From the NCBI RefSeq assembly GCF_003334405.1, contig NZ_QOWM01000016.1: a stretch of 64,000 nucleotides of DNA; one strand, given 5' to 3'. A program made the position numbers and the translations under genes. Shown here in pieces: positions 11,726 through 60,252 of the stretch. The notes beneath the pieces were generated by a model, which saw only the letters and a program-made list of their open reading frames with translations, ran no database searches and had not been told where the DNA came from. Each line of letters begins with the position of its first letter. Within the stretch, counting starts at the first letter, position 1. Source of the DNA: Escherichia coli. GTDB taxonomy: Bacteria > Pseudomonadota > Gammaproteobacteria > Enterobacterales > Enterobacteriaceae.

Positions 11726-11734
11726 TAAACCCTG

Positions 11735-14074: not shown

Positions 14075-14238
14075 TGGACAAAGCGCACTTTGTCAGCAAT
14101 ATGAGGCGGATTTCTTCCGCCTTTTTAATCCCTCAACATATACCCGCAAGTTATAGCCAATCTTTTTTTATTCTTTAATGTTTGGTTAACCTTCTGGCAC
14201 GCTTTGCTCATCACAACACAACATAAGAGAGTCGGGCG

Positions 14239-15228
14239 ATGAACAAGTGGGGCGTAGGGTTAACATTTTTGCTGGCGGCAACCAGCGTTATGGCAAAGGA
14301 TATTCAGCTTCTTAACGTTTCATATGATCCAACGCGCGAATTGTACGAACAGTACAACAAGGCATTCAGCGCCCACTGGAAACAGCAAACTGGTGATAAC
14401 GTGGTGATTCGTCAGTCACACGGTGGCTCAGGTAAACAAGCGACGTCGGTAATCAACGGTATTGAAGCTGATGTTGTCACGCTGGCTCTGGCCTATGACG
14501 TGGACGCAATTGCGGAACGCGGGCGGATTGATAAAGAGTGGATCAAACGTCTGCCGGATAACTCCGCACCGTACACTTCCACCATTGTTTTCCTGGTACG
14601 TAAGGGAAATCCGAAGCAGATCCATGACTGGAACGATCTGATTAAACCGGGTGTTTCGGTGATCACGCCTAATCCGAAAAGCTCTGGTGGCGCGCGCTGG
14701 AACTACCTGGCAGCCTGGGGCTACGCGCTGCATCACAACAACAACGATCAGGCAAAAGCACAGGATTTTGTTCGGGCACTGTATAAAAACGTCGAAGTTC
14801 TGGATTCTGGCGCGCGTGGCTCCACTAACACTTTTGTCGAGCGCGGAATTGGCGATGTACTGATTGCCTGGGAAAACGAAGCTCTGCTGGCAGCGAATGA
14901 ACTGGGGAAAGATAAATTCGAAATCGTCACGCCGAGTGAGTCTATCCTCGCAGAGCCAACCGTGTCGGTGGTCGATAAAGTGGTCGAGAAAAAAGGTACT
15001 AAAGAGGTGGCGGAAGCCTACCTGAAATATCTCTACTCGCCAGAAGGTCAGGAAATTGCCGCGAAAAACTACTACCGTCCGCGCGACGCTGAGGTGGCGA
15101 AAAAGTACGAAAATGCGTTTCCAAAGCTGAAGTTATTCACCATTGATGAAGAGTTCGGCGGCTGGACGAAAGCGCAAAAAGAGCATTTTGCTAACGGCGG
15201 TACGTTCGATCAGATCAGCAAACGCTGA
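14239..15228 (+). CDS. sbp: periplasmic sulfate-binding protein
   Basis: 329-aa [50 protein letters not shown]..., with signal peptide. Confidence 0.93.
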
Positions 15229-43192: not shown

Positions 43193-43292
43193 TGCCGGAT
43201 GCGGAGTGAACGCCTTATCCGGCCTACAAAAGCACGCAAATTCAATATATTGCAGAGATTGCGTAGGCCTGATAAGCGTAGCGCATCAGGCA
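43193..43292. repeat. REP/BIME between yijF and gldA
   Basis: GCCGGATGCGGAGTGAACGCCTTATCCGGCCTAC and GTAGGCCTGATAAGCGTAGCGCATCAGGC, followed by hairpin AACTCCCGG-ACAA-GCCGGGAGTT (43303..43328); spurious ORF 43199..43948 starts inside. Confidence 0.85.
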
Positions 43293-43336
43293 ATTTTGCG
43301 TTCAAACTCCCGGACAAGCCGGGAGTTTGGAGTAGG

Positions 43337-44440
43337 TTATTCCCACTCTTGCAGGAAACGCTGACCGTACTGGTCGGCTACCAGCAGAGCGGCGTAAACC
43401 TGATCTGGCGTCGCGCCGCCAGGCATGTTGTGAATGGTTTCACCTTCTGCACATGCCGCTTCTGCCACAATTCGCATTTTCGCCGGGACATCTTCTTTAA
43501 TATCCAGTTGAGCGAGAGTTATTGGCAAACCTACCGCATGGCTAAGGGCAGCTACGGTTTCGATTTCCTCCACCGGCGCATTTTCCAGAACCAGCTGCGT
43601 CAGCGTACCGAATGCCACTTTTTCACCGTGATAATAGTGATGCGCGTCCGGGATAGCGGTCAGGCCGTTATGCACTGCGTGCGCCGCAGCCAGACCACCA
43701 CTTTCAAAACCAACACTGCTCAAATAGGTGTTCGCTTCAATCACGCGCTCCAGCGCCGGAGTCACTACATGCTGTTCGGCAGCAAGCATCGCTTTTTCGC
43801 CTTCTTCCAGCAGGGTGTTGTAGCACAGTTCAGCCAGTGCCAGCGCAGCCTGGGTGCACTTGCCGCCCGCCATGGTGGTCGCGCCGCTACGAGAGCAGGC
43901 ACGCGCTTCAAACCAGGTTGCCAGCGCATCGCCGATACCCGCCGCTAACAGACGTGCAGGTGCGCCAGCGACGATTTTGGTGTCGACAATGACCATATTC
44001 GGGTTATTTGGCAACAGCAGATAGCGGTCAAACTCACCCTCATCGGTGTAGATAACAGACAATGCGCTGCACGGTGCATCGGTAGAGGCGATAGTCGGTG
44101 CGATCGCTACCGGAACACCCATGAAATGTGCCAGTGCTTTGGCAGTATCGAGGGTTTTTCCGCCACCGATACCGAGAATTGCGCCACACTGCGCAGTCTC
44201 CGCGATGCCACGCAGACGGTCGATCTCATTTTGCGAACATTCACCGCCAAACGGCGCAATTTCTACTACCAGTCCAGCATCTTTAAAGCTTTTCTCGACA
44301 GTGGATTGAGCAAAACCTAAAACAAATTTGTCACCCACCACTAACCAGCGTTCTGCCAGCGGCTTCAGGTATTCGCCCAGACGATTAATCACATCAGCGC
44401 CCTGGATGTATTTACCCGGTGATTGAATAATGCGGTCCAT
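43337..44440 (-). CDS. gldA: glycerol dehydrogenase
   Basis: Track ORF 43337..44479 trimmed to [39 protein letters not shown] (367 aa). Confidence 0.93.
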
Positions 44441-44450
44441 AATTGCTCCT

Positions 44451-45113
44451 TTAGAGATGAGTAGTGCCAAATGCGGCATTCCAGTCGTGTTCGAACTTCT
44501 CTATAGCTGACTCTACCGCAGGGGTGTTGAGCATTTGTTGCGCTACATCTAAGGGCAGGGTGATGGATTCACATCCTGCCAGTAAACAGTCCAGCGCCTG
44601 ACGCGGCGTTTTAAAGCTGGCTGCCAGCACCATGCTTTCTGGCGCGTGCATTTCTAACAGCGTTTGCAGCTCCTGAACCGTACGAATGCCGTCTCCGCCC
44701 TGGGCATCTACGCGGTTAACATACGGAGCAACGTATTTTGCCCCTGCCAGTGCGGCTAATAACCCTTGTGCGGCGCTATATACAGCAGTGCCAAGTGTAG
44801 TAATACCCTCTTTTTTCAGTATTTTAATTGCTGCCAGACCTTCGGAAGTCACCGGGATTTTCACCACAATACCCGGAATAGCGTCGCGCAGGCGCTTCGC
44901 TTCTTCCACCATCCCCTGCGCGTCGCGGCTCATGGTCTGAGCAAACAGAATGCCCTCATCACCAATCGCTTTTTGCAGACGCGGCAGCACTTCCCATATG
45001 GACTCCTTGCTGGCAGCGATAATGCTCGGGTTAGTTGTCACCCCGGCAATGGGGAATATGCGTGCCAGACGTTCGACTTCTGCGACGTTAGCGGTGTCCA
45101 GATACAGTTCCAT
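44451..45113 (-). CDS. fsaB: fructose-6-phosphate aldolase 2
   Basis: 220-aa [46 protein letters not shown]...; transaldolase-like fold. Confidence 0.9.
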
Positions 45114-45124
45114 GATGTTTCCTT

Positions 45125-47626
45125 TTACAGTTCCAGTTCATGTTGCAGCAGGCTGGCGATAGCGTCGGCAGAGGCGGCGTTAACCAGCGCGTTACGGAAT
45201 TCTTCGTGCATGATGCGGCGAGCGAGGCGCGAGAAAATGCGCATATGCTGATCGCCCGCAGCGTGTTTGTTCAGGGTTAACATAATGATGAATTGCGCTT
45301 CATCATCGCCCCAGCGCACCGGCGCTTGCAGACGCGCCACGCTGATGGTGGATTGCTCAATGTGTTCTGATTTGCTGTGTGGAATGGCAAAACTAAAGCC
45401 CAGACCGGTAGAGAAAACGGCCTCGCGCGCCCACAAGTCGGCTTCCAGTTTACGCGGATAGCGGCAGCGGCCCGCCAGCAGCAGGTTATCGGTCATGCCT
45501 TTGAGCACTTCTTCTTTGCTGCGCCAGTCGCTTTCCAGTGTGATGCACTCGGCGGTGACCAGCGGTGCGTCTTGTTGGGTCATGCGGAATTGCGCCAGCA
45601 GGTGTTCCACTTCCAGCGAAGTACGGCAGGCCATTGCCTGGTTGAGCAACTTGCGGCACTCACGGCTATCAAGTTGCGCCATCCGAGCTTTCGCCGCCGG
45701 AATTGATGGTGCGCTCATGCTGAGTTCATCCAGCCCTAAGCCGACCAGCAACGGCAGCACGGAACCTTTCGCTCCCAGCTCACCGCACAGACCAATCCAT
45801 TTGCCCTGGCGATGCACCGCTTGCACGGCGTAATCGAGCGCCCGCAAGAATGCCGGATTCAGGCTGTTGTAGTGACGAGTAACCTTAGCGTTATCGCGAT
45901 CCACCGCCAGCAGATACTGCGTCAGGTCATTACTACCAATACTAAAGAAATCAATCTCTTCGCAGCATTGATCGATGATGAACATCACCGACGGCACTTC
46001 CAGCATGATGCCGAGCTGGATTTTCTCATCAAACGGAATGTGTTCGTTACGTAGTTGCTGTTTGGCTTCCGCCAGTTTTTCTTTCACCCATAAGATCTCT
46101 TCCATTGAGGAGATCATCGGGATCATGATTTTCAGGCTGCCGTGAGCGGAGGCGCGGAGGATCGACCGTAGCTGCGTGGTAAACAACGACGCGTACTCTT
46201 CATAAATACGCACGGCGCGATAACCGAGGAACGGGTTTGCCTCTGCGGGAATGTTCAGATAATCAACGGGTTTGTCGCCGCCAATGTCCATAGTGCGCAC
46301 AATAATGCTGCGTCCGTTGGCGGATTCCAGCGCCTGACAAAAAATGTTGTACAACTCGCTTTCGCCCGGTGCGCTGGTGCGATCCATATAGAGCATTTCA
46401 GTGCGGAACAAACCAACGCCTTCCGCACCATTGCCGAATGCGGCCTGCGCTTCCACGGAGTGAGCGATGTTAGCGGCAATTTCAATGCGGATACCGTCAG
46501 CGGTACGGGCTTGTTGGGTCAGCCAGACACGCTGTTGCTCACGCAGGGCGTCCTGTACGCGGGCTTCTTGCTGATAATAACGAGCTACGGCTTCCCCTGG
46601 CTCAACCACAATCGCCCCGGCGTTGCCGTCGATATAAATCGTTTGTTGCTGCCACGGAGTAAGGGCATCAATATCCACACCAACCAGCGTTGGAATGTTG
46701 AACGAACGGGCAAGGATCACCGTATGTGAGGTGGTGCCGCCGCTTTTGAGCAACAATCCTTTGAGGTGATTTTTATCCAGTTCGAGGAACTGGCTGGGGG
46801 TCAGTTCATCAGCCATACAAATGGCGGGCTGCGTCAGTTTGCCCGGTGCCGGGAAGCGTTGCTCACCGTAGATTTGCTGGAGTAACTGGAAGCAGACGTC
46901 GCGTACGTCCAGGGCACGTTCTTGCAGGTAGCTGCTGCTGGAACGGGAAAACTCTTCGCAAAAGTGATTCGCGCTGGCAACAATTGCTTCGGCGCAGCTT
47001 AATCCGGCGCTGACGCCTGCCAGTAAATGTTCGCGCAGGGAAGTATCGCCAGCCAGGGATCGGTGAGCTTCCAGAATCGCGCTGGTAGCACCGTCGCTAT
47101 CCAGCAGACGAAACTCAATGTTTTTCAGTACCAGCGTCAGGCCGTTTTCCAGTGCGGATTGCTCGGCGTCAACGCCTTTGGCTGCGGGAAGATTACCCAG
47201 CGCATTGAGATCTAAAGAAGAGATCGGCGTCAGAATGCCGCCTGCACTACCGCTGCACACGGTGCGGGCGCGGATAATTTGCGGATTCAGATTGGTCAGT
47301 GAAACCGGCAGTGGTTCCAGTTCGTCAGATTTAACTTCCGCCAGCGGCGCATCGCAGTGGGGGAATTCATCGCGCAGCCATTGGCTTAAACGCTGGTGCG
47401 CTTCCTGTTCGTCGGCCCCGGAAATCAGTAACTGGCAGTTATCGCCCGCCAGCGTATCGGTGCCAATCAGCGCAAGGGCGCTTTTGGCGTTGCCCTTGCG
47501 GTCAGTGCGCAGGTTATGCCACTCAATTTGTGATGAAAAAGTATTACACAGCGTTTCAACGTGGCTTGCCGGACGCGCATGTACGCCGTTAGGTAGCTCA
47601 CAAATAAATTCCACAATCAGGGCCAT
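45125..47626 (-). CDS. ptsA: multiphosphoryl transfer protein (fused PTS domains: IIA-like, HPr-like, enzyme I-like)
   Basis: 833-aa [31 protein letters not shown]... (HPr-like N-terminus with the phospho-His context GVHARPA) followed by a PEP-utilising enzyme I-like region. Confidence 0.9.
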
Positions 47627-47934
47627 TGCCTCTCTCCCGGTACGGTTTTCTGTTTACAGGATAAGAGCGCACGGCAACGGCCTGCCATGTGACAAATCTG
47701 CCAAAAGCTGGACAAATGTAATGTAACCGTCAATTTGCGACGCGTCTCACAAGACGCTGTTTTGCGGCATGCTTCCGGTTTATCGCAAGTTATGAGGCGG
47801 ATCGCATTTTTGTACTGATATTACAAAAGTCCAGTAAATGGCCTTTTTATCCACTGTTTGCTCCGCCTGCGATTGCCTATTGTTTCCTCCATCAAAAATA
47901 TGGACATGGGCTTTCGCAAGCCCGGGAGCAGCTT

Positions 47935-49014
47935 ATGAATGAGTTGGTGCAGATCCTGAAAAATACCCGTCAGCATTTAATGACGGGCGTTTCACACATG
48001 ATTCCCTTCGTGGTATCGGGCGGTATTTTGCTGGCGGTTTCCGTCATGTTGTATGGCAAAGGCGCAGTGCCGGATGCCGTAGCCGATCCAAATCTGAAAA
48101 AACTGTTTGATATCGGCGTTGCGGGCTTGACGCTGATGGTGCCTTTCCTCGCAGCGTACATCGGTTATTCCATTGCAGAGCGTTCTGCGCTGGCTCCGTG
48201 CGCTATCGGTGCCTGGGTTGGTAACAGCTTTGGTGCGGGCTTCTTTGGTGCACTGATCGCCGGGATTATCGGCGGCATCGTGGTGCATTACCTGAAGAAA
48301 ATTCCGGTGCATAAAGTTCTGCGCTCGGTGATGCCTATCTTCATTATTCCTATCGTCGGCACACTGATTACCGCAGGCATCATGATGTGGGGCTTGGGCG
48401 AGCCTGTAGGGGCGTTGACCAACAGCCTGACTCAGTGGCTTCAGGGGATGCAGCAGGGCAGCATTGTTATGCTGGCGGTGATCATGGGTCTGATGCTGGC
48501 GTTCGATATGGGCGGTCCGGTTAACAAAGTGGCCTATGCCTTCATGCTGATTTGCGTTGCTCAGGGTGTTTATACCGTGGTGGCCATCGCTGCCGTGGGT
48601 ATTTGTATCCCGCCGCTGGGGATGGGGCTGGCGACGCTGATTGGTCGTAAAAATTTCTCCGCAGAAGAGCGCGAAACCGGCAAAGCGGCACTGGTGATGG
48701 GCTGTGTTGGCGTTACTGAAGGGGCGATTCCTTTCGCCGCTGCCGATCCGCTGCGTGTCATTCCTTCCATCATGGTCGGTTCAGTTTGTGGTGCAGTAAC
48801 TGCGGCGCTGGTCGGTGCGCAGTGCTATGCAGGCTGGGGTGGTCTGATTGTGCTGCCGGTGGTTGAAGGCAAGCTGGGTTATATCGCAGCAGTGGCTGTC
48901 GGAGCAGTGGTGACGGCTGTTTGTGTGAACGTGCTGAAAAGTCTGGCGCGTAAAAATGGGTCTTCGACTGATGAAAAAGAAGACGACCTGGATTTGGATT
49001 TTGAAATTAATTAA
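47935..49014 (+). CDS. frwC: fructose-like PTS permease IIC component
   Basis: 359-aa polytopic membrane ORF, MNELVQILKNTRQHLMTGVSHMIPFVVSGGILLAVSVMLYG... Confidence 0.88.
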   Translation: MNELVQILKNTRQHLMTGVSHMIPFVVSGGILLAVSVMLYGKGAVPDAVADPNLKKLFDIGVAGLTLMVPFLAAYIGYSIAERSALAPCAIGAWVGNSFGAGFFGALIAGIIGGIVVHYLKKIPVHKVLRSVMPIFIIPIVGTLITAGIMMWGLGEPVGALTNSLTQWLQGMQQGSIVMLAVIMGLMLAFDMGGPVNKVAYAFMLICVAQGVYTVVAIAAVGICIPPLGMGLATLIGRKNFSAEERETGKAALVMGCVGVTEGAIPFAAADPLRVIPSIMVGSVCGAVTAALVGAQCYAGWGGLIVLPVVEGKLGYIAAVAVGAVVTAVCVNVLKSLARKNGSSTDEKEDDLDLDFEIN

Positions 49015-49028
49015 TTGAGGAACGAGCC

Positions 49029-49349
49029 ATGACGAAAATTATTGCAGTAACCGCATGTCCTTCAGGTGTTGCCCATACCTATATGGCAGCAGAGGCGCTG
49101 GAAAGTGCCGCGAAAGCGAAAGGCTGGGAAGTGAAAGTAGAAACCCAGGGGTCAATTGGTCTGGAAAATGAACTGACTGCGGAAGATGTGGCGAGCGCTG
49201 ATATGGTGATTCTGACCAAAGATATCGGCATCAAGTTTGAAGAGCGTTTTGCTGGCAAGACCATCGTGCGCGTCAACATCAGCGATGCAGTAAAACGTGC
49301 TGACGCCATTATGAGCAAAATTGAAGCTCACCTGGCGCAAACCGCTTAA
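49029..49349 (+). CDS. frwB: fructose-like PTS IIB component
   Basis: 106-aa ORF, MTKIIAVTACPSGVAHTYMAAEALESAAKAKGWEVKVETQG...; phospho-Cys context TACPSG. Confidence 0.88.
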   Translation: MTKIIAVTACPSGVAHTYMAAEALESAAKAKGWEVKVETQGSIGLENELTAEDVASADMVILTKDIGIKFEERFAGKTIVRVNISDAVKRADAIMSKIEAHLAQTA

Positions 49350-49399
49350 GTTCTTCTCCCGCTCGCAAGGGCGGGTTCGCTTTCCCACAGGAGTTCCTC

Positions 49400-51697
49400 A
49401 TGACGAATCGTATCTCTCGCCTCAAAACTGCACTGTTTGCCAATACCCGTGAAATCTCGCTGGAGCGGGCGCTGCTTTATACCGCCAGCCATCGGCAAAC
49501 CGAAGGCGAACCGGTGATATTGCGCCGGGCGAAAGCAACAGCGTATATCCTTGAACATGTTGAAATTTCGATTCGTGATGAAGAACTGATTGCCGGTAAC
49601 CGCACCGTAAAACCGCGCGCCGGGATTATGTCGCCGGAAATGGACCCTTACTGGCTGCTGAAAGAGCTGGATCAATTCCCGACGCGTCCGCAGGACCGCT
49701 TTGCTATCAGCGAAGAAGATAAACGTATCTACCGTGAAGAGTTGTTCCCGTACTGGGAAAAACGTTCGATGAAAGATTTCATCAACGGGCAGATGACAGA
49801 TGAAGTAAAAGCCGCGACCAACACGCAGATTTTCAGCATCAACCAGACGGATAAAGGCCAGGGGCACATTATTATTGATTACCCACGCCTGTTGAATCAC
49901 GGGCTGGGTGAGCTGGTGGCACAGATGCAGCAACATTGTCAGCAACAGCCGGAGAATCACTTTTATCAGGCCGCGTTGTTACTGCTGGAAGCCTCGCAGA
50001 AACACATTTTGCGTTACGCCGAACTGGCGGAAACGATGGCGGCAAACTGCACAGATGCCCAGCGTCGCGAAGAGCTGCTGACTATTGCAGAGATCTCCCG
50101 CCATAACGCGCAACATAAGCCGCAGACGTTCTGGCAGGCGTGCCAGTTATTCTGGTACATGAACATCATTCTGCAATACGAATCCAACGCCAGTTCGCTA
50201 TCGTTGGGGCGCTTCGACCAGTATATGTTGCCGTTCTATCAGACATCATTAACCCAGGGCGAAGATGCGGCGTTCCTGAAAGAACTGCTCGAATCTTTAT
50301 GGGTGAAATGCAACGACATCGTGCTGTTGCGCTCCACCAGTAGCGCGCGTTATTTCGCCGGTTTCCCGACCGGCTATACCGCACTGCTCGGCGGGTTAAC
50401 CGAGAACGGACGTAGCGCGGTGAACGTGCTTTCGTTCCTTTGCCTTGACGCCTATCAAAGCGTGCAATTACCGCAACCGAACCTCGGCGTGCGCACTAAC
50501 GCCTTGATCGACACGCCGTTCCTGATGAAAACCGCCGAAACCATTCGCTTCGGCACCGGTATTCCGCAAATCTTTAACGATGAAGTGGTGGTGCCAGCGT
50601 TCCTCAACCGTGGCGTTTCGCTGGAAGATGCGCGCGACTATTCCGTAGTGGGCTGTGTGGAATTATCTATTCCCGGCAGAACCTACGGCTTGCATGACAT
50701 CGCGATGTTTAATCTGCTGAAAGTGATGGAAATCTGCCTGCATGAAAATGAAGGCAATGCTGCGCTGACTTATGAAGGTTTACTGGAGCAGATCCGCGCC
50801 AAGATCAGCCACTACATCACCCTGATGGTTGAGGGCAGCAATATTTGTGATATCGGCCATCGCGACTGGGCACCTGTACCGCTGCTCTCATCGTTTATCA
50901 GCGATTGTCTGGAAAAAGGCCGCGATATTACCGATGGCGGCGCGCGTTATAACTTCTCCGGCGTACAGGGGATCGGTATCGCCAACCTGAGCGATTCTCT
51001 CCATGCGTTGAAAGGGATGGTTTTTGAGCAACAGCGTTTAAGTTTTGACGAATTGCTGTCGGTATTAAAAGCCAACTTCGCAACGCCAGAAGGCGAAAAA
51101 GTCCGCGCTCGCTTAATTAACCGCTTCGAGAAATACGGTAACGATATCGACGAGGTGGATAACATCAGCGCCGAACTGTTGCGCCACTACTGCAAAGAAG
51201 TGGAAAAATACCAGAACCCGCGCGGCGGCTACTTCACGCCGGGATCGTATACCGTTTCTGCTCACGTCCCGTTGGGATCGGTGGTTGGCGCGACGCCAGA
51301 CGGTCGTTTTGCCGGAGAACAGCTGGCAGACGGCGGCTTGTCACCCATGCTGGGCCAGGACGCACAAGGGCCAACAGCGGTACTGAAGTCAGTCAGTAAG
51401 CTCGATAACACGCTGCTGTCTAACGGTACGTTGCTGAACGTGAAATTCACTCCGGCGACCCTGGAAGGTGAAGCAGGATTACGCAAACTGGCCGACTTCT
51501 TACGGGCGTTTACCCAGCTTAAGTTACAACATATTCAGTTTAACGTGGTGAACGCCGACACGTTGCGGGAAGCGCAACAGCGCCCACAAGATTATGCCGG
51601 GCTGGTGGTGCGCGTTGCCGGATACAGCGCCTTCTTTGTCGAACTGTCGAAGGAGATCCAGGATGACATCATCCGCCGGACAGCGCATCAGCTGTAA
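49400..51697 (+). CDS. pflD: glycyl-radical enzyme, PFL family (annotated formate acetyltransferase 2)
   Basis: 765-aa ORF; C-terminal glycyl-radical motif RVAGYSA (Gly codon at 51620..51622); active-site loop VGCVE (Cys codon 50654..50656, Glu 50660..50662). Confidence 0.9.
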   Translation: MTNRISRLKTALFANTREISLERALLYTASHRQTEGEPVILRRAKATAYILEHVEISIRDEELIAGNRTVKPRAGIMSPEMDPYWLLKELDQFPTRPQDRFAISEEDKRIYREELFPYWEKRSMKDFINGQMTDEVKAATNTQIFSINQTDKGQGHIIIDYPRLLNHGLGELVAQMQQHCQQQPENHFYQAALLLLEASQKHILRYAELAETMAANCTDAQRREELLTIAEISRHNAQHKPQTFWQACQLFWYMNIILQYESNASSLSLGRFDQYMLPFYQTSLTQGEDAAFLKELLESLWVKCNDIVLLRSTSSARYFAGFPTGYTALLGGLTENGRSAVNVLSFLCLDAYQSVQLPQPNLGVRTNALIDTPFLMKTAETIRFGTGIPQIFNDEVVVPAFLNRGVSLEDARDYSVVGCVELSIPGRTYGLHDIAMFNLLKVMEICLHENEGNAALTYEGLLEQIRAKISHYITLMVEGSNICDIGHRDWAPVPLLSSFISDCLEKGRDITDGGARYNFSGVQGIGIANLSDSLHALKGMVFEQQRLSFDELLSVLKANFATPEGEKVRARLINRFEKYGNDIDEVDNISAELLRHYCKEVEKYQNPRGGYFTPGSYTVSAHVPLGSVVGATPDGRFAGEQLADGGLSPMLGQDAQGPTAVLKSVSKLDNTLLSNGTLLNVKFTPATLEGEAGLRKLADFLRAFTQLKLQHIQFNVVNADTLREAQQRPQDYAGLVVRVAGYSAFFVELSKEIQDDIIRRTAHQL

Positions 51698-52541
51698 CGT
51701 TGTGGAAACGCGCCGCGATGATGTGGCGCGCATTTTCAACATTCAGCGTTATTCACTGAATGACGGCGAGGGCATTCGTACGGTGGTCTTTTTTAAAGGC
51801 TGTCCGCATCTTTGCCCGTGGTGTGCTAATCCGGAGTCGATCTCCGGCAAAATCCAGACGGTACGCAGAGAGGCGAAATGTCTGCACTGTGCGAAATGTT
51901 TGCGTGATGCGGATGAATGCCCCTCCGGGGCGTTTGAACGGATTGGTCGCGATATCAGCCTTGACGCTCTGGAACGGGAAGTGATGAAAGATGACATTTT
52001 CTTTCGCACGTCCGGCGGCGGCGTCACGCTTTCTGGCGGCGAAGTGTTAATGCAGGCGGAGTTTGCTACCCGTTTTTTACAGCGACTGCGGCTGTGGGGT
52101 GTGTCATGCGCCATTGAAACTGCCGGAGACGCACCAGCCAGCAAGCTATTACCGCTGGCGAAATTGTGCGATGAAGTGTTGTTCGATTTAAAAATTATGG
52201 ACGCGACTCAGGCGCGGGATGTGGTGAAGATGAACCTGCCACGCGTGCTGGAGAATCTGCGTTTGCTGGTGAGTGAGGGCGTCAACGTGATCCCGCGTTT
52301 ACCGCTGATCCCTGGTTTCACGCTCAGCCGGGAGAATATGCAGCAGGCGCTGGATGTACTGATCCCGCTGAATATCAGGCAGATCCATCTGTTACCGTTT
52401 CATCAGTACGGCGAACCGAAATACCGCCTGCTGGGGAAAACATGGTCGATGAAAGAGGTGCCTGCGCCGTCGTCAGCTGATGTGGCAACGATGCGCGAAA
52501 TGGCAGAACGGGCCGGACTTCAGGTTACCGTGGGAGGTTAA
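51663..52541 (+). CDS. pflC: glycyl-radical enzyme activating enzyme (radical SAM)
   Basis: Track ORF 51594..52541 trimmed to MTSSAGQRISCNVVETRRDDVARIF (292 aa); radical-SAM cluster motif CPHLCPWC plus a second Cys-rich stretch CLHCAKCLRDADECP; 35-bp overlap with pflD. Confidence 0.88.
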   Translation: MTSSAGQRISCNVVETRRDDVARIFNIQRYSLNDGEGIRTVVFFKGCPHLCPWCANPESISGKIQTVRREAKCLHCAKCLRDADECPSGAFERIGRDISLDALEREVMKDDIFFRTSGGGVTLSGGEVLMQAEFATRFLQRLRLWGVSCAIETAGDAPASKLLPLAKLCDEVLFDLKIMDATQARDVVKMNLPRVLENLRLLVSEGVNVIPRLPLIPGFTLSRENMQQALDVLIPLNIRQIHLLPFHQYGEPKYRLLGKTWSMKEVPAPSSADVATMREMAERAGLQVTVGG

Positions 52542-52542
52542 A

Positions 52543-52884
52543 ATGGCATACCTGGTGGCAGTAACCGCCTGCGTAAGCGGCGTGGCGCATACTTATATGG
52601 CGGCGGAACGGCTGGAAAAGTTGTGCCTGTTAGAGAAGTGGGGAGTCAGCATTGAAACTCAGGGCGCGCTGGGAACGGAGAATCGTTTAGCGGATGAGGA
52701 TATCCGCCGGGCGGATGTTGCTCTGTTGATTACGGATATCGAGCTTGCCGGTGCCGAGCGATTTGAACATTGCCGCTATGTGCAATGCAGCATCTACGCA
52801 TTCCTGCGTGAGCCGCAGCGGGTAATGAGCGCGGTGCGCAAAGTGCTTTCTGCGCCGCAGCAAACCCATCTTATTCTGGAGTAG
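52543..52884 (+). CDS. frwD: fructose-like PTS IIB-type component
   Basis: Track ORF 52480..52884 trimmed to MAYLVAVTACVSGVAHTYMAAERLEKL (113 aa); paralogous to frwB (same TAC.SGVAHTYMAAE motif). Confidence 0.85.
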   Translation: MAYLVAVTACVSGVAHTYMAAERLEKLCLLEKWGVSIETQGALGTENRLADEDIRRADVALLITDIELAGAERFEHCRYVQCSIYAFLREPQRVMSAVRKVLSAPQQTHLILE

Positions 52885-53722
52885 TCGGTTTTTCTGTCAG
52901 TTGGCTGTGGTACTGCCGGCGATATTCCGACGGCGAGCGTTCGGTGTTTTTACGAAACAGACGGCAGAAGTAGTTGCTGTCGACAAAGCCGCAGGCGTGC
53001 GCCACTTCTTTTACCTTCAGGTCATAGCCTTTCAATAACGTCTTAGCGTGCTCCAGTCGCGTGTGATTCAGGTATTCGTTAAAACCAATGGCCCCCGTTT
53101 TTTGAAACAGGTGCGAGAGGTAATTTGGCGAAATATAAAACGCCTGTGCAACAGATTCGCGGGTAAGCGCGGAGGCATAGCGTTCGTCGATATAATCGCG
53201 AATAGCTTCAAATAGTGCCTGGCTGCGTGAGGCGGTCTGGATTTGGCTGCCAAGCAAATCGCGGCAGTGGCTAAGCAGGCTGGCGACGATAAGCCTTGCC
53301 GTTTGCTGCTCCTGCGGCTGCATTTGCATTTCATTGAGCGTTTGTAGCAGAAAAGAACCTATGCGTGGGCCGCGTCGGGCGACGTGTTGCTTCGCCAGAT
53401 TTTGATATTGTTTGCCATCCCATTGCACGACGCTGAAGCCGAGTTGCTGTTTGCCAAACAGCACGCTAAAGGTAGTAGCGGGGGCTTGCCATTGTGGAAA
53501 ATTCCAGCCACCAGCAGGAACGTACAGCACATCGCCGGGAACTAACGTTGCTCCAGCGCCGGTATCAACAAACTCACCTTCCAGCACAATTTCCAGCCGT
53601 GGAAAATCGACCTGATACGCAAGATCGGGCACCGGGCCGTTACTGCTGGCAAAGTAAATCTGGCGCAGGGACAGCGGGCCGTTGATCAGGCGGGAGAGCA
53701 GATAGCTGACGTCGTGATACAT
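52871..53722 (-). CDS. yijO: AraC-family transcriptional regulator
   Basis: 283-aa ORF; C-terminal AraC-type HTH (…NEYLNHTRLEHAKTLLKGYDLKVKEVAHACGFVDSNYFCRLFRKNTERSPSEYRRQ). Confidence 0.85.
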   Translation of the reverse strand: MYHDVSYLLSRLINGPLSLRQIYFASSNGPVPDLAYQVDFPRLEIVLEGEFVDTGAGATLVPGDVLYVPAGGWNFPQWQAPATTFSVLFGKQQLGFSVVQWDGKQYQNLAKQHVARRGPRIGSFLLQTLNEMQMQPQEQQTARLIVASLLSHCRDLLGSQIQTASRSQALFEAIRDYIDERYASALTRESVAQAFYISPNYLSHLFQKTGAIGFNEYLNHTRLEHAKTLLKGYDLKVKEVAHACGFVDSNYFCRLFRKNTERSPSEYRRQYHSQLTEKPTTPE

Positions 53723-53769
53723 GTTATTCCCTTAGGTATGTAGACGGGAAAACAGTAACTGGCATTATT

Positions 53770-53798
53770 AAAAAAGGCCACCTGAAAAGTGTGGCCTG
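53770..53798 (-). terminator. Intrinsic terminator downstream of eptC
   Basis: Minus-strand hairpin GGCCAC-ACTTTTCAG-GTGGCC followed by TTTTTT. Confidence 0.7.
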
Positions 53799-53833
53799 AG
53801 GGGAGTTCGATGTAAACATTGCGGCAGTTGTAT

Positions 53834-53917
53834 TGCCGGATGTGGCGTAAACGCCTTATCCAGCCTACCGCCGCGATCTGTAGGCCGGATAAGACGCGTC
53901 AAGCGTCGCATCCGGCA
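53834..53917. repeat. REP/BIME between eptC and yijO
   Basis: TGCCGGATGTGGCGTAAACGCCTTATCCAGCCTAC and GTAGGCCGGATAAGACGCGTCAAGCGTCGCATCCGGCA; spurious ORFs 53768..53962 and 53819..54025 lie inside. Confidence 0.85.
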
Positions 53918-53936
53918 AATAGCGCCTGGCTGATAA

Positions 53937-55670
53937 TTACTGATTACCCACCTGATCGCCATAGGGCAGTGTGTCGTAATCGATCAGTGCGTTTTTCTTA
54001 TACGGGTTACCAATCCAGCGGGTAGTTTCTTTGAACTGCGGATTCACCACTGAACGGGTTGGATCGTAACCGTCGTAAGATAAGCCCGCCAAATCTGACC
54101 AGGTGTGGATCAGTTCCGCCAGGCTGTATTTACGATCAACATCCTGCGAGAAATCACGGGGATGAGTCGCTTGCCATTTTTCTGACGTCCACAGCAGGAA
54201 CGGAATGGTGTACATATGACGCGTCGGGTTGTCCTCATTACGCCCCTGAGTTTTGTGCGGCGGCGTGTCGTAAACCTCTTCACCGTGGTCAGAGAAATAA
54301 ACCAGGAAACCGTTCGGGTTTGCTGCTTTAAAGTCTTTAATCAGGCTGGCAACCACATGATCGTTATACAGGTTAGCGTTGTCATAATCGTTATATGACT
54401 CCAGCTCTTCCGCGTTTAATCCCGGCGGAACATGATCGGTATTGCCATCAAACTTGCCCTGATTTTCCGGGTAGCGGTATTTGTATTTGATATGCGTACC
54501 CAGCAGATGAACAATGATCAGTTTCTTCGGCGCAGGGTCATTCAGCACTTCCTGGAACGGCTTCAGCACGTTGGTGTCGTATTCACGCGCACTCTGCGTA
54601 CGTTGCTGGTTCATGTAGTACTGCTTGTCGGTCTGGCGCGAAAATACCGTCAGCATGGTATTGCGGGCGGTCATCGTCTGCTGGTTGGTGATCCAGAAGG
54701 TTTTATAACCCGCCTGTTTCATCATGTTCATCAGCGACGGCTGCGTCAGATACAGATCCGGGTTCTTTTCATTGGCAAAGGTCAGCGCCTGTTGCAGGAT
54801 TTCAATGGTGTACGGACGAGACGTAACTACGTTATTAAACACGGTCAGATTCGGATCGGTTTTATGCAGCGCATCCAGCTCCGGCGTGGTTTCACGCGGA
54901 TAACCGTACAGACTCATGCGTCCGCGCTGGGTCGACTCGCCAATCACCAGCACTAAAGTGCGCGGTTCGTTACCCGATTCATCTTTGAAATTAGCCAGTG
55001 GCGGCAAGGCATTATTTTCATTCAGTAACTTTGTTAGCGAGTTTAGTTGCTGACGATACTGATAATAGCCGGTCAGGAATTGCCACGGTGCGGCAGGCTC
55101 CATACGCGAGGCCAGGTTATCCAACGTTTTCTCAAACGGCTTGTTTTTGATAAACGTATTCATGGCGATCGGATGCAGAATCAAGCCATAAAGCAGGGCA
55201 AAAGAGACAACATAACGCCACGGCTTTGGAATATAGACCGGGCGCAGGCGTGTCCACAGCAGAACTGCCACCGCCGTATAGGCCAGCGCGATAAGCACAA
55301 TTTTCAGGCTGAAATACTGGCTTAAATACTCGCTGGCTTCGTTGGTGTTGGTTTCGAACATCACAAACAGAACGCTCTGCGAGAACTCCTGACCGTAGAT
55401 GACGTAGTAGCACAGCGCCGCCAGAGAGGCCGCCCATAGCACCACGCCGATTACTGCGGCAATAATTTTAATCCGCTTCGGAAAGAGGAATACCGGGATC
55501 AACCACAGCGAACTGAATAACAGCGAGTCGCGAATGCCGTTAGTGCCACTATAACCACTGATGTAAATAATGGCCTGTAGCAGAGTAGAGAAAAACCAAA
55601 AGTAGAGCAGTGCCCAACCCAGGGCTTTCCAGCTAAAAAGAGGTTTAGCCTGGACTTCTGTGGAATGCAT
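53937..55670 (-). CDS. eptC: phosphoethanolamine transferase (LPS core modification)
   Basis: 577-aa ORF, MHSTEVQAKPLFSWKALGWALLYFWFFSTLLQAIIYISGYSG...; N-terminal TM segments plus sulfatase-like domain. Confidence 0.88.
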   Translation of the reverse strand: MHSTEVQAKPLFSWKALGWALLYFWFFSTLLQAIIYISGYSGTNGIRDSLLFSSLWLIPVFLFPKRIKIIAAVIGVVLWAASLAALCYYVIYGQEFSQSVLFVMFETNTNEASEYLSQYFSLKIVLIALAYTAVAVLLWTRLRPVYIPKPWRYVVSFALLYGLILHPIAMNTFIKNKPFEKTLDNLASRMEPAAPWQFLTGYYQYRQQLNSLTKLLNENNALPPLANFKDESGNEPRTLVLVIGESTQRGRMSLYGYPRETTPELDALHKTDPNLTVFNNVVTSRPYTIEILQQALTFANEKNPDLYLTQPSLMNMMKQAGYKTFWITNQQTMTARNTMLTVFSRQTDKQYYMNQQRTQSAREYDTNVLKPFQEVLNDPAPKKLIIVHLLGTHIKYKYRYPENQGKFDGNTDHVPPGLNAEELESYNDYDNANLYNDHVVASLIKDFKAANPNGFLVYFSDHGEEVYDTPPHKTQGRNEDNPTRHMYTIPFLLWTSEKWQATHPRDFSQDVDRKYSLAELIHTWSDLAGLSYDGYDPTRSVVNPQFKETTRWIGNPYKKNALIDYDTLPYGDQVGNQ

Positions 55671-55805
55671 AGTAAGAACCTGTCTTGAAAAAATATCGCC
55701 GAATGTAACGACAATTCCTTAAGGATATCTGAAGGTATATTCAGAATTTGAATAAAATGCAGACAGAAATATATTGAAAACGAGGGTGTTAGAACAGAAG
55801 TATTT

Positions 55806-55836
55806 CAGAAAACCCTCGCGCAAAAGCACGAGGGTT
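55806..55836 (-). terminator. Intrinsic terminator downstream of ppc
   Basis: Minus-strand hairpin CCCTCG-TGCTTTTGCG-CGAGGG followed by TTTTCT, 16 bp past the ppc stop. Confidence 0.7.
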
Positions 55837-55851
55837 TGCAGAAGAGGAAGA

Positions 55852-58503
55852 TTAGCCGGTATTACGCATACCTGCCGCAATCCCGGCAATAGTGACCATT
55901 AACGCTTGTTCGACGCGAGGATCCGGTTCCTGGCCTTCTTTTTCTGCCTGGCGGGAGCGGTGCAGCAACTCGGCCTGCAATACGTTCAGCGGGTCGGTGT
56001 AAATATTCCGTAGCTGAATAGACTCTGCAATCCACGGCAGATCGGCCATCAGATGGGAATCGTTGGCAATCGCCAGCACCACTTTGATGTCTTCTTCTTG
56101 CAGGTTGCGTAACTCTTTACCTAACGGCCACAGTGCTTTGTCTACCAGGCGTTGGTCATAGTATTCCGCCAGCCACAGGTCTGCTTTGGCGAAGACCATC
56201 TCCAGCATGCCGAGACGCGTCGAGAAGAATGGCCAATCGCGGCACATAGCCTCCAGCTCGCTCTGTTTGCCGTCTTCGACCACTTTTTGCAGCGCCGTAC
56301 CTGCACCCAGCCAGGCGGGGAGCATCAGACGGTTTTGCGTCCAGGCGAAGATCCACGGAATGGCGCGTAGTGACTCGACGCCGCCGGTTGGGCGACGTTT
56401 CGCCGGACGTGAACCCAACGGCAGTTTGCCCAGTTCTTGTTCCGGCGTAGCGGAGCGGAAGTAAGGCACAAAATCTTTGTTTTCACGTACGTAGCCGCGG
56501 TAGACATCGCAGGAGATGACTGACAGTTCATCCATAATGCGACGCCAGCTCTCTTTCGGCTCCGGCGGTGGCAGCAGGTTGGCTTCCAGAATCGCCCCGG
56601 TATAAAGCGACAGGCTGCTGACGGTGATTTCTGGCAGACCATATTTAAAGCGGATCATCTCGCCCTGTTCGGTTACGCGCAGGCCGCCTTTCAGGCTTCC
56701 TGGCGGTTGTGACAGCAGCGCCGCATGAGCAGGTGCGCCGCCGCGACCAATGGAACCGCCGCGACCGTGGAACAACGTCAGCTCAATACCCGCTTTTTCG
56801 CAGGTTTTGATTAATGCATCCTGTGCCTGATATTGCGCCCAGGAAGCTGCCATCACTCCCGCATCTTTTGCTGAGTCGGAATAGCCAATCATCACCATCT
56901 GTTTGCCCTGAATCAGGCCACGATACCAGTCAATATTGAGCAGCTGGGTCATGACATCGTTGGCGTTGTTCAGATCATCGAGGGTTTCAAACAGCGGAGC
57001 AACCGGCATCGCAAACCCGATACCCGCTTCTTTCAGCAGCAGGTGGACAGCCAGTACGTCGGACGGCGTTTTCGCCATCGAGATCACGTAGGCGGCAATG
57101 GAGCCTTGCGGTGCTTCGGCAATCACCTGGCAGGTATCGAGCACTTCGCGCGTTTCGGCGCTTGGTTGCCAGTTGCGCGGCAGAAGCGGACGTTTGGAGT
57201 TCAGTTCGCGGATCAGGAACGCCTGTTTGTCGGCCTCTGACCAGCTTTCGTAGTCGCCGATACCGAGGTAGCGGGTCAGCTCGCCCAGCGCTTCGGTATG
57301 ACGCGTGCTCTCCTGACGGATATCAATACGGACCAGCGGTACGCCGAAACATTTCACGCGGCGCAGGGTGTCGAGCAGATCGCCGTTGGCGATAATACCC
57401 ATGCCACACGCCTGAAGTGACTGGTAGCAAGCGTAGAGCGGTTCCCACAGTTCTTCGTTTTGTGTCAGCAGGCCTTCTGGTTTTGGCAGTTCTTCGCCTT
57501 TCAGGCGCGCTTCCAGCCATGCCTGTGTCGCCATCAGGCGAGAACGCAGGTTTTTCATCAGATAGCGATACGGTTCTGCGGCACCTTCTTCGCCAACCAG
57601 CGCCAGCAGTTCAGGGGTCGCTTCAACCATCGACAGTTCAGAAACCAGCACCTGAATATCTTTCAGGAACAAATCGGTGGCTTTCCAGCGGCTGAGTAGC
57701 AGGACGTGGCGGGTGATATCGGCAGTGACGTTCGGGTTGCCGTCGCGGTCGCCGCCCATCCACGAAGTAAAACGGACCGGAACAAATTCGACGGGCAGTT
57801 TGTAGCCGAGGTTCTCTTCCAGTTGTTCGTTCAGTTCGCGCAGGTAATTTGGTACGCCTTGCCACAGGCTGTTTTCCACTACGGCAAAGCCCCATTTGGC
57901 TTCATCTACCGGGCTTGGACGCAGCTTACGGATTTCATCGGTATGCCATGACTGGGCGATCAACTGGCGCAGGCGACGCATCAGCTGGTTGTGTTCGTAG
58001 TCAGCGATATCTTTGTTATCGAGCTGTTTTAAACAGGCGTTCACTTCCACCATTTTGTGGATCAGTGTACGACGGGTAATTTCGGTTGGGTGAGCCGTGA
58101 GGACCAGTTCCAGCGACAGCGATTCCACTGCTTTTTTGATGGTGTCTTCGCTCAGTTCCGGCTGGTTTTTCAGTTTACGCAGGGTGCGGGCGATCACTTC
58201 CGGGTTGCTGGCAGCTTCGCCTTTCGGCGAAATGCTGTGGTATTGCTCGGCGGTGTTGGCCAGGTTCAGGAACTGACTAAACGCACGCGCAACGGGCAGC
58301 AGCTCGTCGTTCGACAAATTTTGTAAGGTGGTGAGCAACTCCTGGCGGTTAGCATCATTGCCAGCGCGTGAAGATTTCGACAACTTACGGATAGTTTCTA
58401 CGCGTTCAAGAATGTGTTCTCCCAACGCATCCTTGATGGTTTCTCCCAGCACTTTGCCGAGCATACTGACATTACTACGCAATGCGGAATATTGTTCGTT
58501 CAT
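55852..58503 (-). CDS. ppc: phosphoenolpyruvate carboxylase
   Basis: 883-aa [44 protein letters not shown]..., ending in the conserved C-terminal ...MRNTG. Confidence 0.96.
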
Positions 58504-58751
58504 ATTACCCCAGACACCCCATCTTATCGTTTGATAGCCCTGTATCCTTCACGTCGCATTGGCGCGAATATGCTCGGGCTTTGCTTTTCGTCGTCTTTTA
58601 TAAAGCCACGTAAAAGCGGTGACGTCAAATGCTGCGAAATCGCTTCAGCAAACGAATAAATAGCAGGAATTTACGTCATTAAATTCACGACGCTTTAAAT
58701 AAGCGTAACTTATGGAAATGTTAAAAAATCGCCCCAAGTAACACCAAAGGT

Positions 58752-59100
58752 GTAGGTCGGATAAGATGCGCAAGTATCGCATCCGACATTATTGCGGCAC
58801 TGGAGTTTGGCAACAGTGCCGGATGCGGCGCGAGCGCCTTATCCGGCCTACAGTTGGGCATCGTTTGAGTCACTGTAGGTCGGATAAGATGCGCAAGTAT
58901 CGCATCCGACATTATTGCGGCACTGGAGTTTGGCAACAGTGCCGGATGCGGCGCGAGCGCCTTATCCGGCCTACAGTTGGGCATCGTTTGAGTCACTGTA
59001 GGTCGGATAAGATGCGCAAGTATCGCATCCGACATTATTGCGGCACTGGAGTTTGGCAACAGCGCCGGATGCGGCGCGAGCGCCTTATCCGGCCTACGTT
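58752..59100. repeat. Three-copy tandem BIME (123-bp unit, each with two REP palindromes plus a linker hairpin) between ppc promoter region and argE 3' end
   Basis: Unit starts at 58752, 58875 and 58998 (period exactly 123 bp); copies identical except one substitution in copy 3 (C at 59063 versus T) and truncation of the last linker; produces the artefactual ORFs 58721..59113 and 58766..59104. Confidence 0.9.
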
Positions 59101-60252
59101 TTAATGCCAGCAAAAATGGTGAATTACCTGGGTTATCAGTTCGCGGGTGGGCTTGATAAACCGTGTTTCCAGATATTCATCAGGTTGATGAGCCTGATTA
59201 ATTGAGCCAGGCCCCAACACCAGCGTCGGGCATAACGTTTGAATAAACGGCGCTTCGGTACAGTAGTTCACCACTTCGGTTTTTGCTCCGAGCAATTTCT
59301 CAACCACTTCAACCAGTTGATGATTCGGTGGGCATTCATAGCCAGGGATCGGCGGATGCAGCTCGTCGACCGTCAGACGACCCGGCCAGCGTTCGCTCAC
59401 CGGAGCCAATGCATCGTTGAGCAAACCATTAAGTTCATTGAGTGTCATGCCAGGCAGCGGACGAATATCCATATGCAACTCACAGCAAGCGCAAATACGG
59501 TTAGAAGCGTCGCCACCGTGAATATGCCCGAGGTTGAGCGTAGGGTATGGCACGGTAAACGCTTCGTAGTGATAACGTTCTTTCAGGTTATCGCGCAATT
59601 GCAAAATATGCCCGATGGCGTCGTGCATTAGTTCGATAGCGTTAACTCCGCGTGCTGGATCGCTGGAGTGCCCCGACTGGCCCTGAATACGGATGGCGTT
59701 AGAGATATGACCTTTATGTGCGCGTACCGGTTGTAGTGACGTCGGTTCGCCAATGATGGCGCAATCCGGGCGCAGGGCGGTAGTTTCGGCAAAATAACGC
59801 GCTCCGGCCATACTGGTTTCTTCATCAGCAGTCGCCAGAATGTAGAGCGGTTTTTTCAGTTTCGTGACGTCGACATCGCGTAGCGCATCAAGGATAAACG
59901 CAAAAAAGCCTTTCATGTCGGCGGTGCCTAAGCCGTAAAGCTTGCCGTCATGCTCCGTCAGTGTAAACGGATCGCGCGTCCAGCGACCGTCATCAAATGG
60001 CACCGTATCGGTATGCCCCGCCAGCAACAAGCCGCCAGCCCCCTGTCCGATACTTGCCAGCATATTGAATTTGTTGCGAGTTCCTGGAACAGGCTGCACT
60101 TCCACATTGAAGCCCAAATCTTTAAACCAGTCCGCCAGCAGAGTGATTAAATCTGCATTGCTTTGATCGAGTGCCTCTTCCGTGGCGCTTATTGAAGGTG
60201 TGGCAATCAGAGCGCGGTAAATCTCGATAAATGGCGGTAATTTGTTTTTCAT
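59101..60252 (-). CDS. argE: acetylornithine deacetylase
   Basis: Track ORF 59101..60291 trimmed to [35 protein letters not shown] (383 aa); M20 peptidase family. Confidence 0.93.

Follow-up and report, generated by a model that had tools for sequence, protein, structure and literature searches.

According to a 2025 review (PMC12441222; original work by Ma et al., J Am Chem Soc 2024;146:26187), the two anhydropolyol pathways of Escherichia coli both begin with phosphorylation by a phosphotransferase system (PTS) and proceed through a glycyl-radical-dependent cleavage. In that account YbiW cleaves 1,5-anhydroglucitol-6-phosphate and PflD cleaves 1,5-anhydromannitol-6-phosphate, each to 1-deoxyfructose-6-phosphate, and the pathways allow E. 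coli and other gut bacteria to grow on the polyol. Here we describe the locus that encodes PflD in a stretch of 64,000 nucleotides of E. coli DNA (contig NZ_QOWM01000016.1 of assembly GCF_003334405.1), hereafter the window, whose numbering is used for all coordinates. The locus spans positions 43337-53722 and contains gldA, fsaB, ptsA, frwC, frwB, pflD, pflC, frwD and yijO (Table 1). We consider it very likely that it encodes a complete anaerobic catabolic route for 1,5-anhydro-D-mannitol (AM), a branch of the 'radical-mediated glycolysis' published in 2024. The function of the pathway has been known since that year; the predicted control by YijO and CRP and a conserved junction between frwD and yijO may be the only new part.

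The list of open reading frames (ORFs), megablast and what RefSeq annotates on an identical chromosome agree on these nine genes, all of which are intact. An earlier reading of the window, made from its letters without database searches (the sequence-only reading), had named the nine genes and their operon layout correctly, with intact ORFs at the implied positions, and had delimited the divergent ptsA/frwC spacer exactly (47627..47934; 308 bp). The gene set given in its text stands, and its range, 45125-53722, leaves out two of the genes named there, fsaB and gldA at 43337-45113. Its description of tightly packed plus-strand genes is borne out by intergenic gaps of 14 bp (frwC-frwB), 50 bp (frwB-pflD), -35 bp (pflD-pflC, an overlap) and 1 bp (pflC-frwD), and yijO does converge on frwD, with a tail-to-tail overlap of 14 bp (-14). 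The gaps on the minus strand are 10 bp (gldA-fsaB) and 11 bp (fsaB-ptsA). The duplicated IIB proteins it pointed out are the paralogues FrwB and FrwD, which are 42-43% identical. Its classing of the locus as a known one is correct as well, and so is its suggestion that a carbohydrate imported by a PTS is used anaerobically here. What is out of date is its view that the identity of the carbohydrate is not established and the locus functionally open: the review cited above (PMC12441222) gives the substrate of PflD, reported in 2024, as 1,5-anhydromannitol-6-phosphate.

In a megablast search of complete genomes, several E. coli chromosomes, that of E. coli 300709 among them, carry the 8.6-kb stretch with 100% identity. 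It is matched in 5,426 of 5,426 complete E. coli genomes and covered over at least 80% of its length in 5,391 of them. The locus is core E. coli DNA, and its pattern does not come from chance.

Table 1. Genes and control elements of the locus, in coordinates of the 64-kb window
Feature	Position	Strand	Description and source
gldA	43337-44440	-	NAD-dependent glycerol / L-1,2-propanediol dehydrogenase; NCBIfam and RefSeq
fsaB	44451-45113	-	Fructose-6-phosphate aldolase 2; NCBIfam TIGR00875
ptsA	45125-47626	-	Fused HPr - Enzyme I - EIIA (Fru/Mtl type); Pfam
TATCCT, candidate -10 hexamer for ptsA	47658-47663	-	Moderately conserved in the 23-genus alignment; 19 bp past the end of O-pts
O-pts, 40-bp operator facing ptsA (ATTACATTTGTCCAGCTTTTGGCAGATTTGTCACATGGCA)	47683-47722	-	Conserved block, footprint A1; proposed YijO site
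CRP-type site 1, ptsA side (TGCGACGCGTCTCACA)	47736-47751		One mismatch to TGTGA-N6-TCACA; both half-sites conserved in 23 genera
CRP-type site 2, frwC side (TATGAGGCGGATCGCA)	47791-47806		Conserved; CRP ChIP-seq site in ETEC
O-frw, 40-bp operator facing frwC (ATTACAAAAGTCCAGTAAATGGCCTTTTTATCCACTGTTT)	47820-47859	+	Most conserved block of the spacer; proposed YijO site
TATTGT, candidate -10 hexamer for frwC	47878-47883	+	CCTATTGT near-invariant in 23 genera; 18 bp past O-frw
frwC	47935-49014	+	PTS EIIC permease, fructose family; NCBIfam
frwB	49029-49349	+	PTS EIIB, fructose type, active-site Cys10; NCBIfam
GC-rich hairpin (CCCGCTCGCAAGGGCGGG, then weak T tract TTCGCTTTCC)	49358-49375	+	Terminator scan; within the 50-bp frwB-pflD gap
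pflD	49400-51697	+	Glycyl-radical enzyme, eliminase (dehydratase) type; TIGR01774, identity to 8YJO
pflC	51663-52541	+	Radical-SAM activase of PflD; NF007483, TIGR02494
frwD	52543-52884	+	Second PTS EIIB paralogue; NF007747
yijO	52871-53722	-	AraC-family regulator; HTH_18

PflD is identical over 765 of 765 residues to PDB chain 8YJO_A, deposited as 'Probable dehydratase PflD'; the PDB entries 8YJN and 8ID7 bear the name 'Probable dehydratase YbiW'. These deposits support the published function independently. After PflD itself, the nearest solved relatives found in a PDB search are glycyl-radical dehydratases and eliminases (E 1e-195 to 1e-124), and the match to the pyruvate formate-lyase (PFL) structure 1H16 is weak (E 6e-33). 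PflD scores 1356 bits against TIGR01774, the model of the PFL2/glycerol-dehydratase subfamily (cutoff 678.2), and 121.9 bits, through its C-terminal part only, against the PFL model TIGR01255, which places it outside that family (cutoff 994.2). The glycine-radical loop RVAGY (residues 738-742) assigns the radical to Gly741, and the C-terminus also matches the NCBIfam models of GrcA, the spare-glycyl protein. The cysteine loop, VVGC419VE421, has a single Cys with a Glu two residues on and lacks a Cys-Cys pair. A GCxE motif is the mark of glycyl-radical eliminases, as in glycerol dehydratase and CutC. Because of the single-Cys loop GC419VE421 and a TIGR01255 score far below the cutoff, PflD is, judged by these features, an eliminase-type glycyl-radical enzyme and not a pyruvate formate-lyase. 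Its partner PflC carries the motif C47-X3-C51-X2-C54 (residues 47-54) of radical S-adenosylmethionine (radical-SAM) enzymes together with a Cys73/76/79/86 cluster, and matches NF007483 (627 bits) and TIGR02494 (262 bits, cutoff 174). The reading frames of pflD and pflC share 35 nt, and an overlapping start of pflC is kept in other genera.

The route that we propose runs as follows. PtsA would transfer phosphate from phosphoenolpyruvate (PEP) through its HPr, Enzyme I and EIIA parts to the IIB proteins FrwB and/or FrwD, and FrwC would import AM as AM-6-phosphate, a role given to the FrwC/PtsA system from its co-location with pflD. PflC would activate PflD to the Gly741 radical, and PflD, as reported, opens the anhydro ring by radical C-O cleavage, yielding 1-deoxyfructose-6-phosphate. 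A retro-aldol cleavage of this product by FsaB would give hydroxyacetone and, as an entry to glycolysis, glyceraldehyde-3-phosphate. GldA, in the proposed last step, would reduce hydroxyacetone to 1,2-propanediol and thereby re-oxidise NADH. Ma et al. (2024) reportedly describe the cleavage of 1-deoxyfructose-6-phosphate by FsaA and FsaB to glyceraldehyde-3-phosphate and hydroxyacetone, and the conversion of the latter by GldA to 1,2-propanediol.

The individual proteins are suited to these steps. Pfam divides PtsA into PTS-HPr (7-84), PEP-utilisers_N (123-237), the mobile domain (266-337), the PEP-binding domain (363-653) and PTS_EIIA_2 (690-829), and the protein matches the Enzyme-I family above the curated NCBIfam cutoff. 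With all three phospho-site His motifs present (GVH16ARPA, GGTTSH301TVILAR and FAIPH750), PtsA would, by its motifs, carry phosphate from PEP to the IIB proteins without other partners. FrwC is a fructose-family IIC by its scores against NF007787 (720 bits, cutoff 426) and TIGR01427 (300 bits, cutoff 157.6). FrwB matches NF007783 (210 bits, cutoff 135) and its motif VTAC10PSGV is retained in 75 of 75 orthologues; FrwD matches NF007747 (224 bits, cutoff 153), and its Cys10, within the motif V/I-T/S-A/G-C10-V/I-SGV, is present in all 66 of 66. FsaB scores 354.6 bits against TIGR00875 (cutoff 245.95). GldA scores 749.7 bits against NF047954 (cutoff 700), a model named 'bifunctional L-1,2-propanediol dehydrogenase/glycerol dehydrogenase'. 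Fructose-6-phosphate aldolase (FSA) takes hydroxyacetone as an aldol donor (PMC7767278), and fsaB and gldA are expressed anaerobically, in the same operon as ptsA (PMC6643234).

To place the locus in a wider context, we collected 80 pflD loci, one genome per species, by a scan for PflD followed by tblastn of the proteins of the window. The set covers Escherichia, Citrobacter, Enterobacter, Klebsiella, Yersinia, Hafnia, Rahnella, Serratia, Edwardsiella, Gilliamella, Zophobihabitans, Necropsobacter and Vibrio. The core arrangement ptsA / frwC-frwB-pflD-pflC is retained in about 70 of the 80 species, out to Vibrio, Gilliamella and the Pasteurellaceae. Linkage of an fsa gene to pflD extends to most genera, with Gilliamella, Necropsobacter and Vibrio among them; its place in Gilliamella and Vibrio is downstream of pflC and not beside ptsA. 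At 75 of the 80 loci pflD is flanked by an orthologue of yijO (49-98% identical across 60% or more of its length), the five exceptions being contigs that end just past the operon. The 75 include Enterobacter cloacae DSM 26481, in which yijO is frameshifted into ORFs of 152 and 129 aa (L015 13482-14331) within an otherwise intact cluster, either as a pseudogene or through a sequencing error. Five loci represent a variant without a linked PTS: four of Kluyvera type (L032, L033, L041 and L050) and that of Edwardsiella piscicida (L077). In these five the region around 9800-15000 holds pflD-pflC and a yijO-like gene (51-57% identity), and frwCBD, ptsA, fsa and gldA are not nearby. Uptake and phosphorylation of the substrate would there need genes located elsewhere.

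In Vibrio galatheae, a gene for an RmlD/SDR-like reductase (L079 13148-14005; TIGR01214, 156 bits, below the cutoff) stands between pflC and an fsa gene of 40% identity, and the layout is similar at three further Vibrio loci (L078, L080 and L081). This reductase may substitute for GldA or act on a precursor of the anhydro-sugar.

The divergent ptsA/frwC spacer keeps a length of 301-316 bp throughout the Enterobacteriaceae, and its alignment across 23 genera reveals four sharply conserved blocks amid diverged sequence: two 40-bp operators, O-pts and O-frw, and two CRP-type sites. We compared the operators with position weight matrices (PWMs), scanning the 64-kb window and 1.7 Mb of loci. With a PWM built from O-frw only, O-pts is the best non-self match on both strands of the window (9.6, next -1.0), and in the reverse test a PWM built from O-pts only retrieves O-frw (19.3, next 2.8). 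PWM scores at O-frw are 55-64, against a 99.99th percentile of the background of about -2 to -7. The plain identity of the two operators in E. coli is 23/40, no better than that of background 40-mers (22/40), and would by itself hide their kinship, which shows only in position-specific conservation. By the reciprocal PWM test, O-pts and O-frw are inverted copies of one motif. A combined PWM finds the mirrored pair as the two top matches in the held-out Vibrio, Gilliamella, Necropsobacter and Zophobihabitans. At the PTS-less loci of Kluyvera and E. piscicida it detects one strong copy, which lies 110-125 bp upstream of pflD; in Vibrio, Klebsiella spallanzanii and Kluyvera, weaker copies immediately precede the yijO-like gene. 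The paralogous ybiW locus yielded no copy.

The geometry of the spacer is mirror-symmetric. The distance from CRP centre to operator is 21.5 bp on both sides, the operator ends 18 bp (frwC) or 19 bp (ptsA) before a conserved -10-like hexamer, and each operator contains an internal direct repeat; that of the 40-bp site reads TCCAGT...TCCACT, with a spacing of 20 bp. Chromatin immunoprecipitation sequencing (ChIP-seq) in enterotoxigenic E. coli (ETEC) H10407 placed a CRP peak at ptsA/frwC, and its listed site, TGCGATCCGCCTCATA, is the reverse complement of site 2 (PMC4287617). The block at 47791-47806 is half FNR-like and half CRP-like; we call it a CRP site because of this ChIP-seq assignment, and it could instead be a site for FNR. 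The FNR box TTGAT-N4-ATCAA has no match with two or fewer mismatches in 47627-47934.

We regard YijO as the likely activator of the pathway through O-pts and O-frw. The proposal follows from two observations: the operator and a yijO orthologue accompany pflD in 75 of 80 species, spanning Escherichia to Vibrio, and also in genera whose loci lack the PTS, and the 40-bp direct-repeat site reaches the -35 region with CRP just upstream, as in araBAD. The DNA-binding domain of YijO is well delimited (HTH_18 at 192-270, E 4.5e-21; HTH_AraC at 233-269), and residues 168-270 are matched by the solved DNA-binding domains of AraC, SoxS and XylR. Residues ~1-165 match no Pfam family, apart from a faint cupin-like hint (JmjC_2 at 58-89, E 0.024), and the N-terminal domain has been described as divergent (PMC9308461). 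YijO would bind both mirror-image operators, each reaching the -35 region of its own promoter with a CRP site 21.5 bp upstream, and the ptsA and frwC operons would switch on together in response to substrate and cyclic AMP (cAMP)-CRP, in an araBAD-like arrangement. On balance we lean towards YijO being a substrate-responsive activator of the AraC type and the 308-bp spacer a symmetric double araBAD-like switch, with possible feedback between frwD and yijO.

Such feedback is suggested by the frwD-yijO junction. Of the 64 loci with both genes, 57 retain the tail-to-tail arrangement, with the two ends overlapping or no more than 60 bp apart, and in Necropsobacter, Zophobihabitans and Vibrio the pair moves together, so that it survives rearrangement of gene order. 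This conservation suggests antisense feedback or a functional link of the second IIB protein with the regulator: yijO could be damped by transcripts that read through from the operon once it is induced, or FrwD could signal transport status to YijO. The 3' overlap of frwD and yijO has been listed as a convergent 'excludon' pair from RNA-seq coverage (PMC12288877). Our literature search found no description of YijO/operator control or of frwD-yijO feedback, which the 2024 J Am Chem Soc paper could cover.

Different explanations of the locus deserve to be weighed against the AM pathway. The older one makes PflD a pyruvate or 2-ketoacid formate-lyase, PflC its activase and FrwBCD a cryptic fructose-like PTS, the whole a spare module of mixed-acid fermentation that would serve a fructose-like sugar. 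It agrees with the RefSeq product names, with the NCBIfam equivalog NF007437 ('formate C-acetyltransferase'), with the matches of the Frw proteins to fructose-family models and with an older suggestion tying PtsA to anaerobic fructose catabolism (quoted in PMC6643234). We find it scarcely credible given GCVE in place of adjacent Cys-Cys, 122 bits against the TIGR01255 cutoff of 994, closest solved relatives that are dehydratases and eliminases, the deposition of 8YJO as a 'probable dehydratase' and the reported substrate, AM-6-phosphate (PMC12441222). For PflD itself, pyruvate or ketoacid formate-lyase was tried as a candidate and rejected, being ruled out by the missing Cys-Cys pair and the sub-cutoff score. 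A quite improbable account, in our estimate, separates ptsA-fsaB-gldA functionally from frwCB-pflDC-frwD: its main role would be the fermentation of dihydroxyacetone (DHA) and glycerol, with GldA making DHA and FsaB condensing it with glyceraldehyde-3-phosphate, and the divergent neighbourhood would be accidental. Deletion of fsaB or gldA does slow growth on DHA, and overexpression restores optimal growth (PMC6643234), and ybiW is served by a separate aldolase gene, fsaA, with no linked dehydrogenase. Yet fsaB and gldA are not induced by DHA, and ptsA has no role in DHA use (PMC6643234) while it stands divergent from frwC in about 70 species. Chromosomal fsa expression was described in 2020 as very low and its physiological role as 'enigmatic' (PMC7767278). 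Moreover, the fsa genes stay with pflD even after rearrangement, and the mirror-image operator copies with equal geometry in both operons argue for their co-regulation. Several points nonetheless weigh against the AM pathway under YijO control. Besides the contribution of fsaB and gldA to DHA use (PMC6643234), gldA is linked to the cluster only in an Escherichia/Citrobacter/Enterobacter-like clade (tblastn, 80 loci), which also favours the DHA account. The proposed FsaB and GldA steps draw on which donors FSA accepts and on the name that NCBIfam gives to GldA. The enzymology of PflD is reported here second-hand, from the review and from PDB molecule names, and transport of AM by FrwBCD/PtsA specifically is something we infer from co-location and synteny, the review saying only 'a PTS'.

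In the control region, the operators could be bound by PhoB or an unlinked factor, with YijO controlling something else or being inactive; we judge this rather unlikely, though it is the rival to be taken most seriously. Chromatin immunoprecipitation on microarrays (ChIP-chip) gave a PhoB peak with a predicted Pho box, ATGTGACAAATCTGCCAA (47687-47704), inside O-pts, although binding was accompanied by no change in expression (PMC3465305). The operator is built of TGTC/TCCA-like units phased at ~10-11 bp. Pho boxes show a comparable periodicity of ~10-11 bp. The link between YijO and the operator is one that we infer from comparative evidence, our literature search for yijO having turned up a survey of uncharacterised transcription factors and the excludon list and no regulon study, and E. 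coli yijO has no operator copy upstream, the best half-site scoring 2.5. A scan for the sigma-70 consensus found no promoter in the spacer (4 sites in the region, against 8.6 in shuffles), and the -10 hexamers and implied transcription starts, near 47890 (+) and 47651 (-), are guesses. An absent sigma-70 consensus is expected for activator-dependent promoters and gives no positive support. The case for YijO over another regulator is that the operator co-occurs with yijO orthologues wherever there is sufficient DNA, PTS-less loci included, that weaker copies precede the yijO-like gene in the three lineages listed above, and that pflD loci conserve no other regulator gene. A 40-bp direct-repeat site abutting the -35 region also fits the footprint of an AraC-family dimer, as generally known from araI1-I2.

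The gaps between the plus-strand genes favour a single unit from frwC to frwD, with the hairpin and its weak T tract lying in the largest of them. In a subset of 15 sequences, all from Enterobacteriaceae, its 7-bp stem is kept with one compensatory (covarying) pair. RNAalifold found no consensus structure for all 23 frwB-pflD spacers, whose sequences do not align, and the single-sequence folding z-score of -0.75 is unremarkable for the composition. The corresponding gap contains non-homologous hairpins or elements resembling repetitive extragenic palindromes (REP) in Klebsiella, Hafnia, Citrobacter, Gilliamella and Vibrio; Rahnella has none. The E. coli hairpin is possibly a leaky terminator, an intra-operon attenuator or an mRNA-stabilising structure, and may determine how many transporter transcripts are made relative to enzyme transcripts.

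An Rfam scan of 42000-56000 matched no family. The yijO-eptC spacer contains nested inverted repeats at 53833-53918 that resemble REP or bacterial interspersed mosaic elements (BIME) (GCCGGATGTGGCG...CGCCTTATCCAGCCTAC / GTAGGCCGGATAAGACG...CGTCGCATCCGGC), without an operator copy. Further along, the RefSeq annotation of the identical chromosome places a hypothetical protein of 130 aa between ppc and argE, overlapping the end of argE (~58721-59113; L001 19597-19989).

Product names at the locus lag behind the literature. In NZ_CP025903.1, RefSeq/PGAP has 'ptsP' for ptsA, 'formate C-acetyltransferase' for PflD and '[formate-C-acetyltransferase]-activating enzyme' for PflC, and the annotation of MG1655 still describes YbiW as a 'putative pyruvate formate lyase'; for PflD, 'formate C-acetyltransferase' is outdated. 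The practical value of our analysis is this correction, since the annotation or older literature misleads readers into judging the locus open. One pathway for anhydro-sugars, which arise from the breakdown of starch and glycogen in the gut, unites the orphan genes pflD, pflC, frwBCD, ptsA and fsaB and a physiological role for gldA. Regulation is the remaining gap at the locus. The prediction for YijO and CRP is modest in general significance; if true, it would give a function to a transcription factor that is among those still uncharacterised in E. coli.

Compared with known systems, the locus is closest to the anhydromannitol branch of Ma et al. (2024): it is the same locus with the same protein (the 765/765 match of PflD to 8YJO), and we see no difference in coding content. 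The ybiY-ybiW / fsaA locus of E. coli encodes a paralogous radical enzyme, activase and aldolase, with identities of 37.5% (YbiW-PflD), 36% (YbiY-PflC) and 70% (FsaA-FsaB). YbiW and PflD both carry GC(V/I)E and RVAGY, the former as IGC444IE446 (counted from the context 'YAAIGCIETAVG', matched at 440), and have the same reported product, 1-deoxyfructose-6-phosphate (PMC12441222). Unlike the present locus, that of ybiW has no linked PTS, gldA, AraC-family regulator or 40-bp operator, and the substrate of YbiW is the C2 epimer. The glycyl-radical 1,2-eliminases, among them B12-independent glycerol dehydratase (1R8W), propanediol dehydratase (5I2A), choline TMA-lyase CutC and hydroxyproline dehydratase, share with PflD the single catalytic Cys with a Glu two residues on, the C-terminal RVxG loop and a radical-SAM activase that is encoded nearby and has additional Cys clusters. 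They lose water or an amine, whereas the leaving group in PflD, according to the review, is the ring ether oxygen of a phosphorylated anhydro-sugar, so that the ring is opened (PMC12441222). PflB and TdcE (formate C-acetyltransferase) belong to the same glycyl-radical fold family and have a similar C-terminal glycine loop, but PflD lacks their Cys-Cys pair, falls far under the PFL cutoff and has a different chemistry.

The transporter resembles the fructose PTS (FruB and FruA IIB'BC) in its fructose-family IIC, IIB and EIIA_2 domains and in the fusion of an HPr-like domain to IIA. It differs in that PtsA carries its own Enzyme I, which makes the relay independent of PtsI or HPr, in that IIB and IIC are separate polypeptides, and in that the second IIB, FrwD, retains its active-site Cys. 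The IIB' domain of FruA is not known to have one. As for control, in araBAD a dimer of AraC occupies the tandem half-sites araI1-I2 overlapping the -35 region, with CRP upstream. The operators described here likewise have an internal direct repeat, end 18-19 bp before a -10-like hexamer and have a CRP site just upstream, and YijO belongs to the AraC family. Unlike araBAD, two mirrored modules within one 308-bp spacer would drive divergent operons, and the gene of the regulator, whose binding is predicted, is found at the opposite end of the operon, where it runs tail-to-tail with the final gene, frwD.

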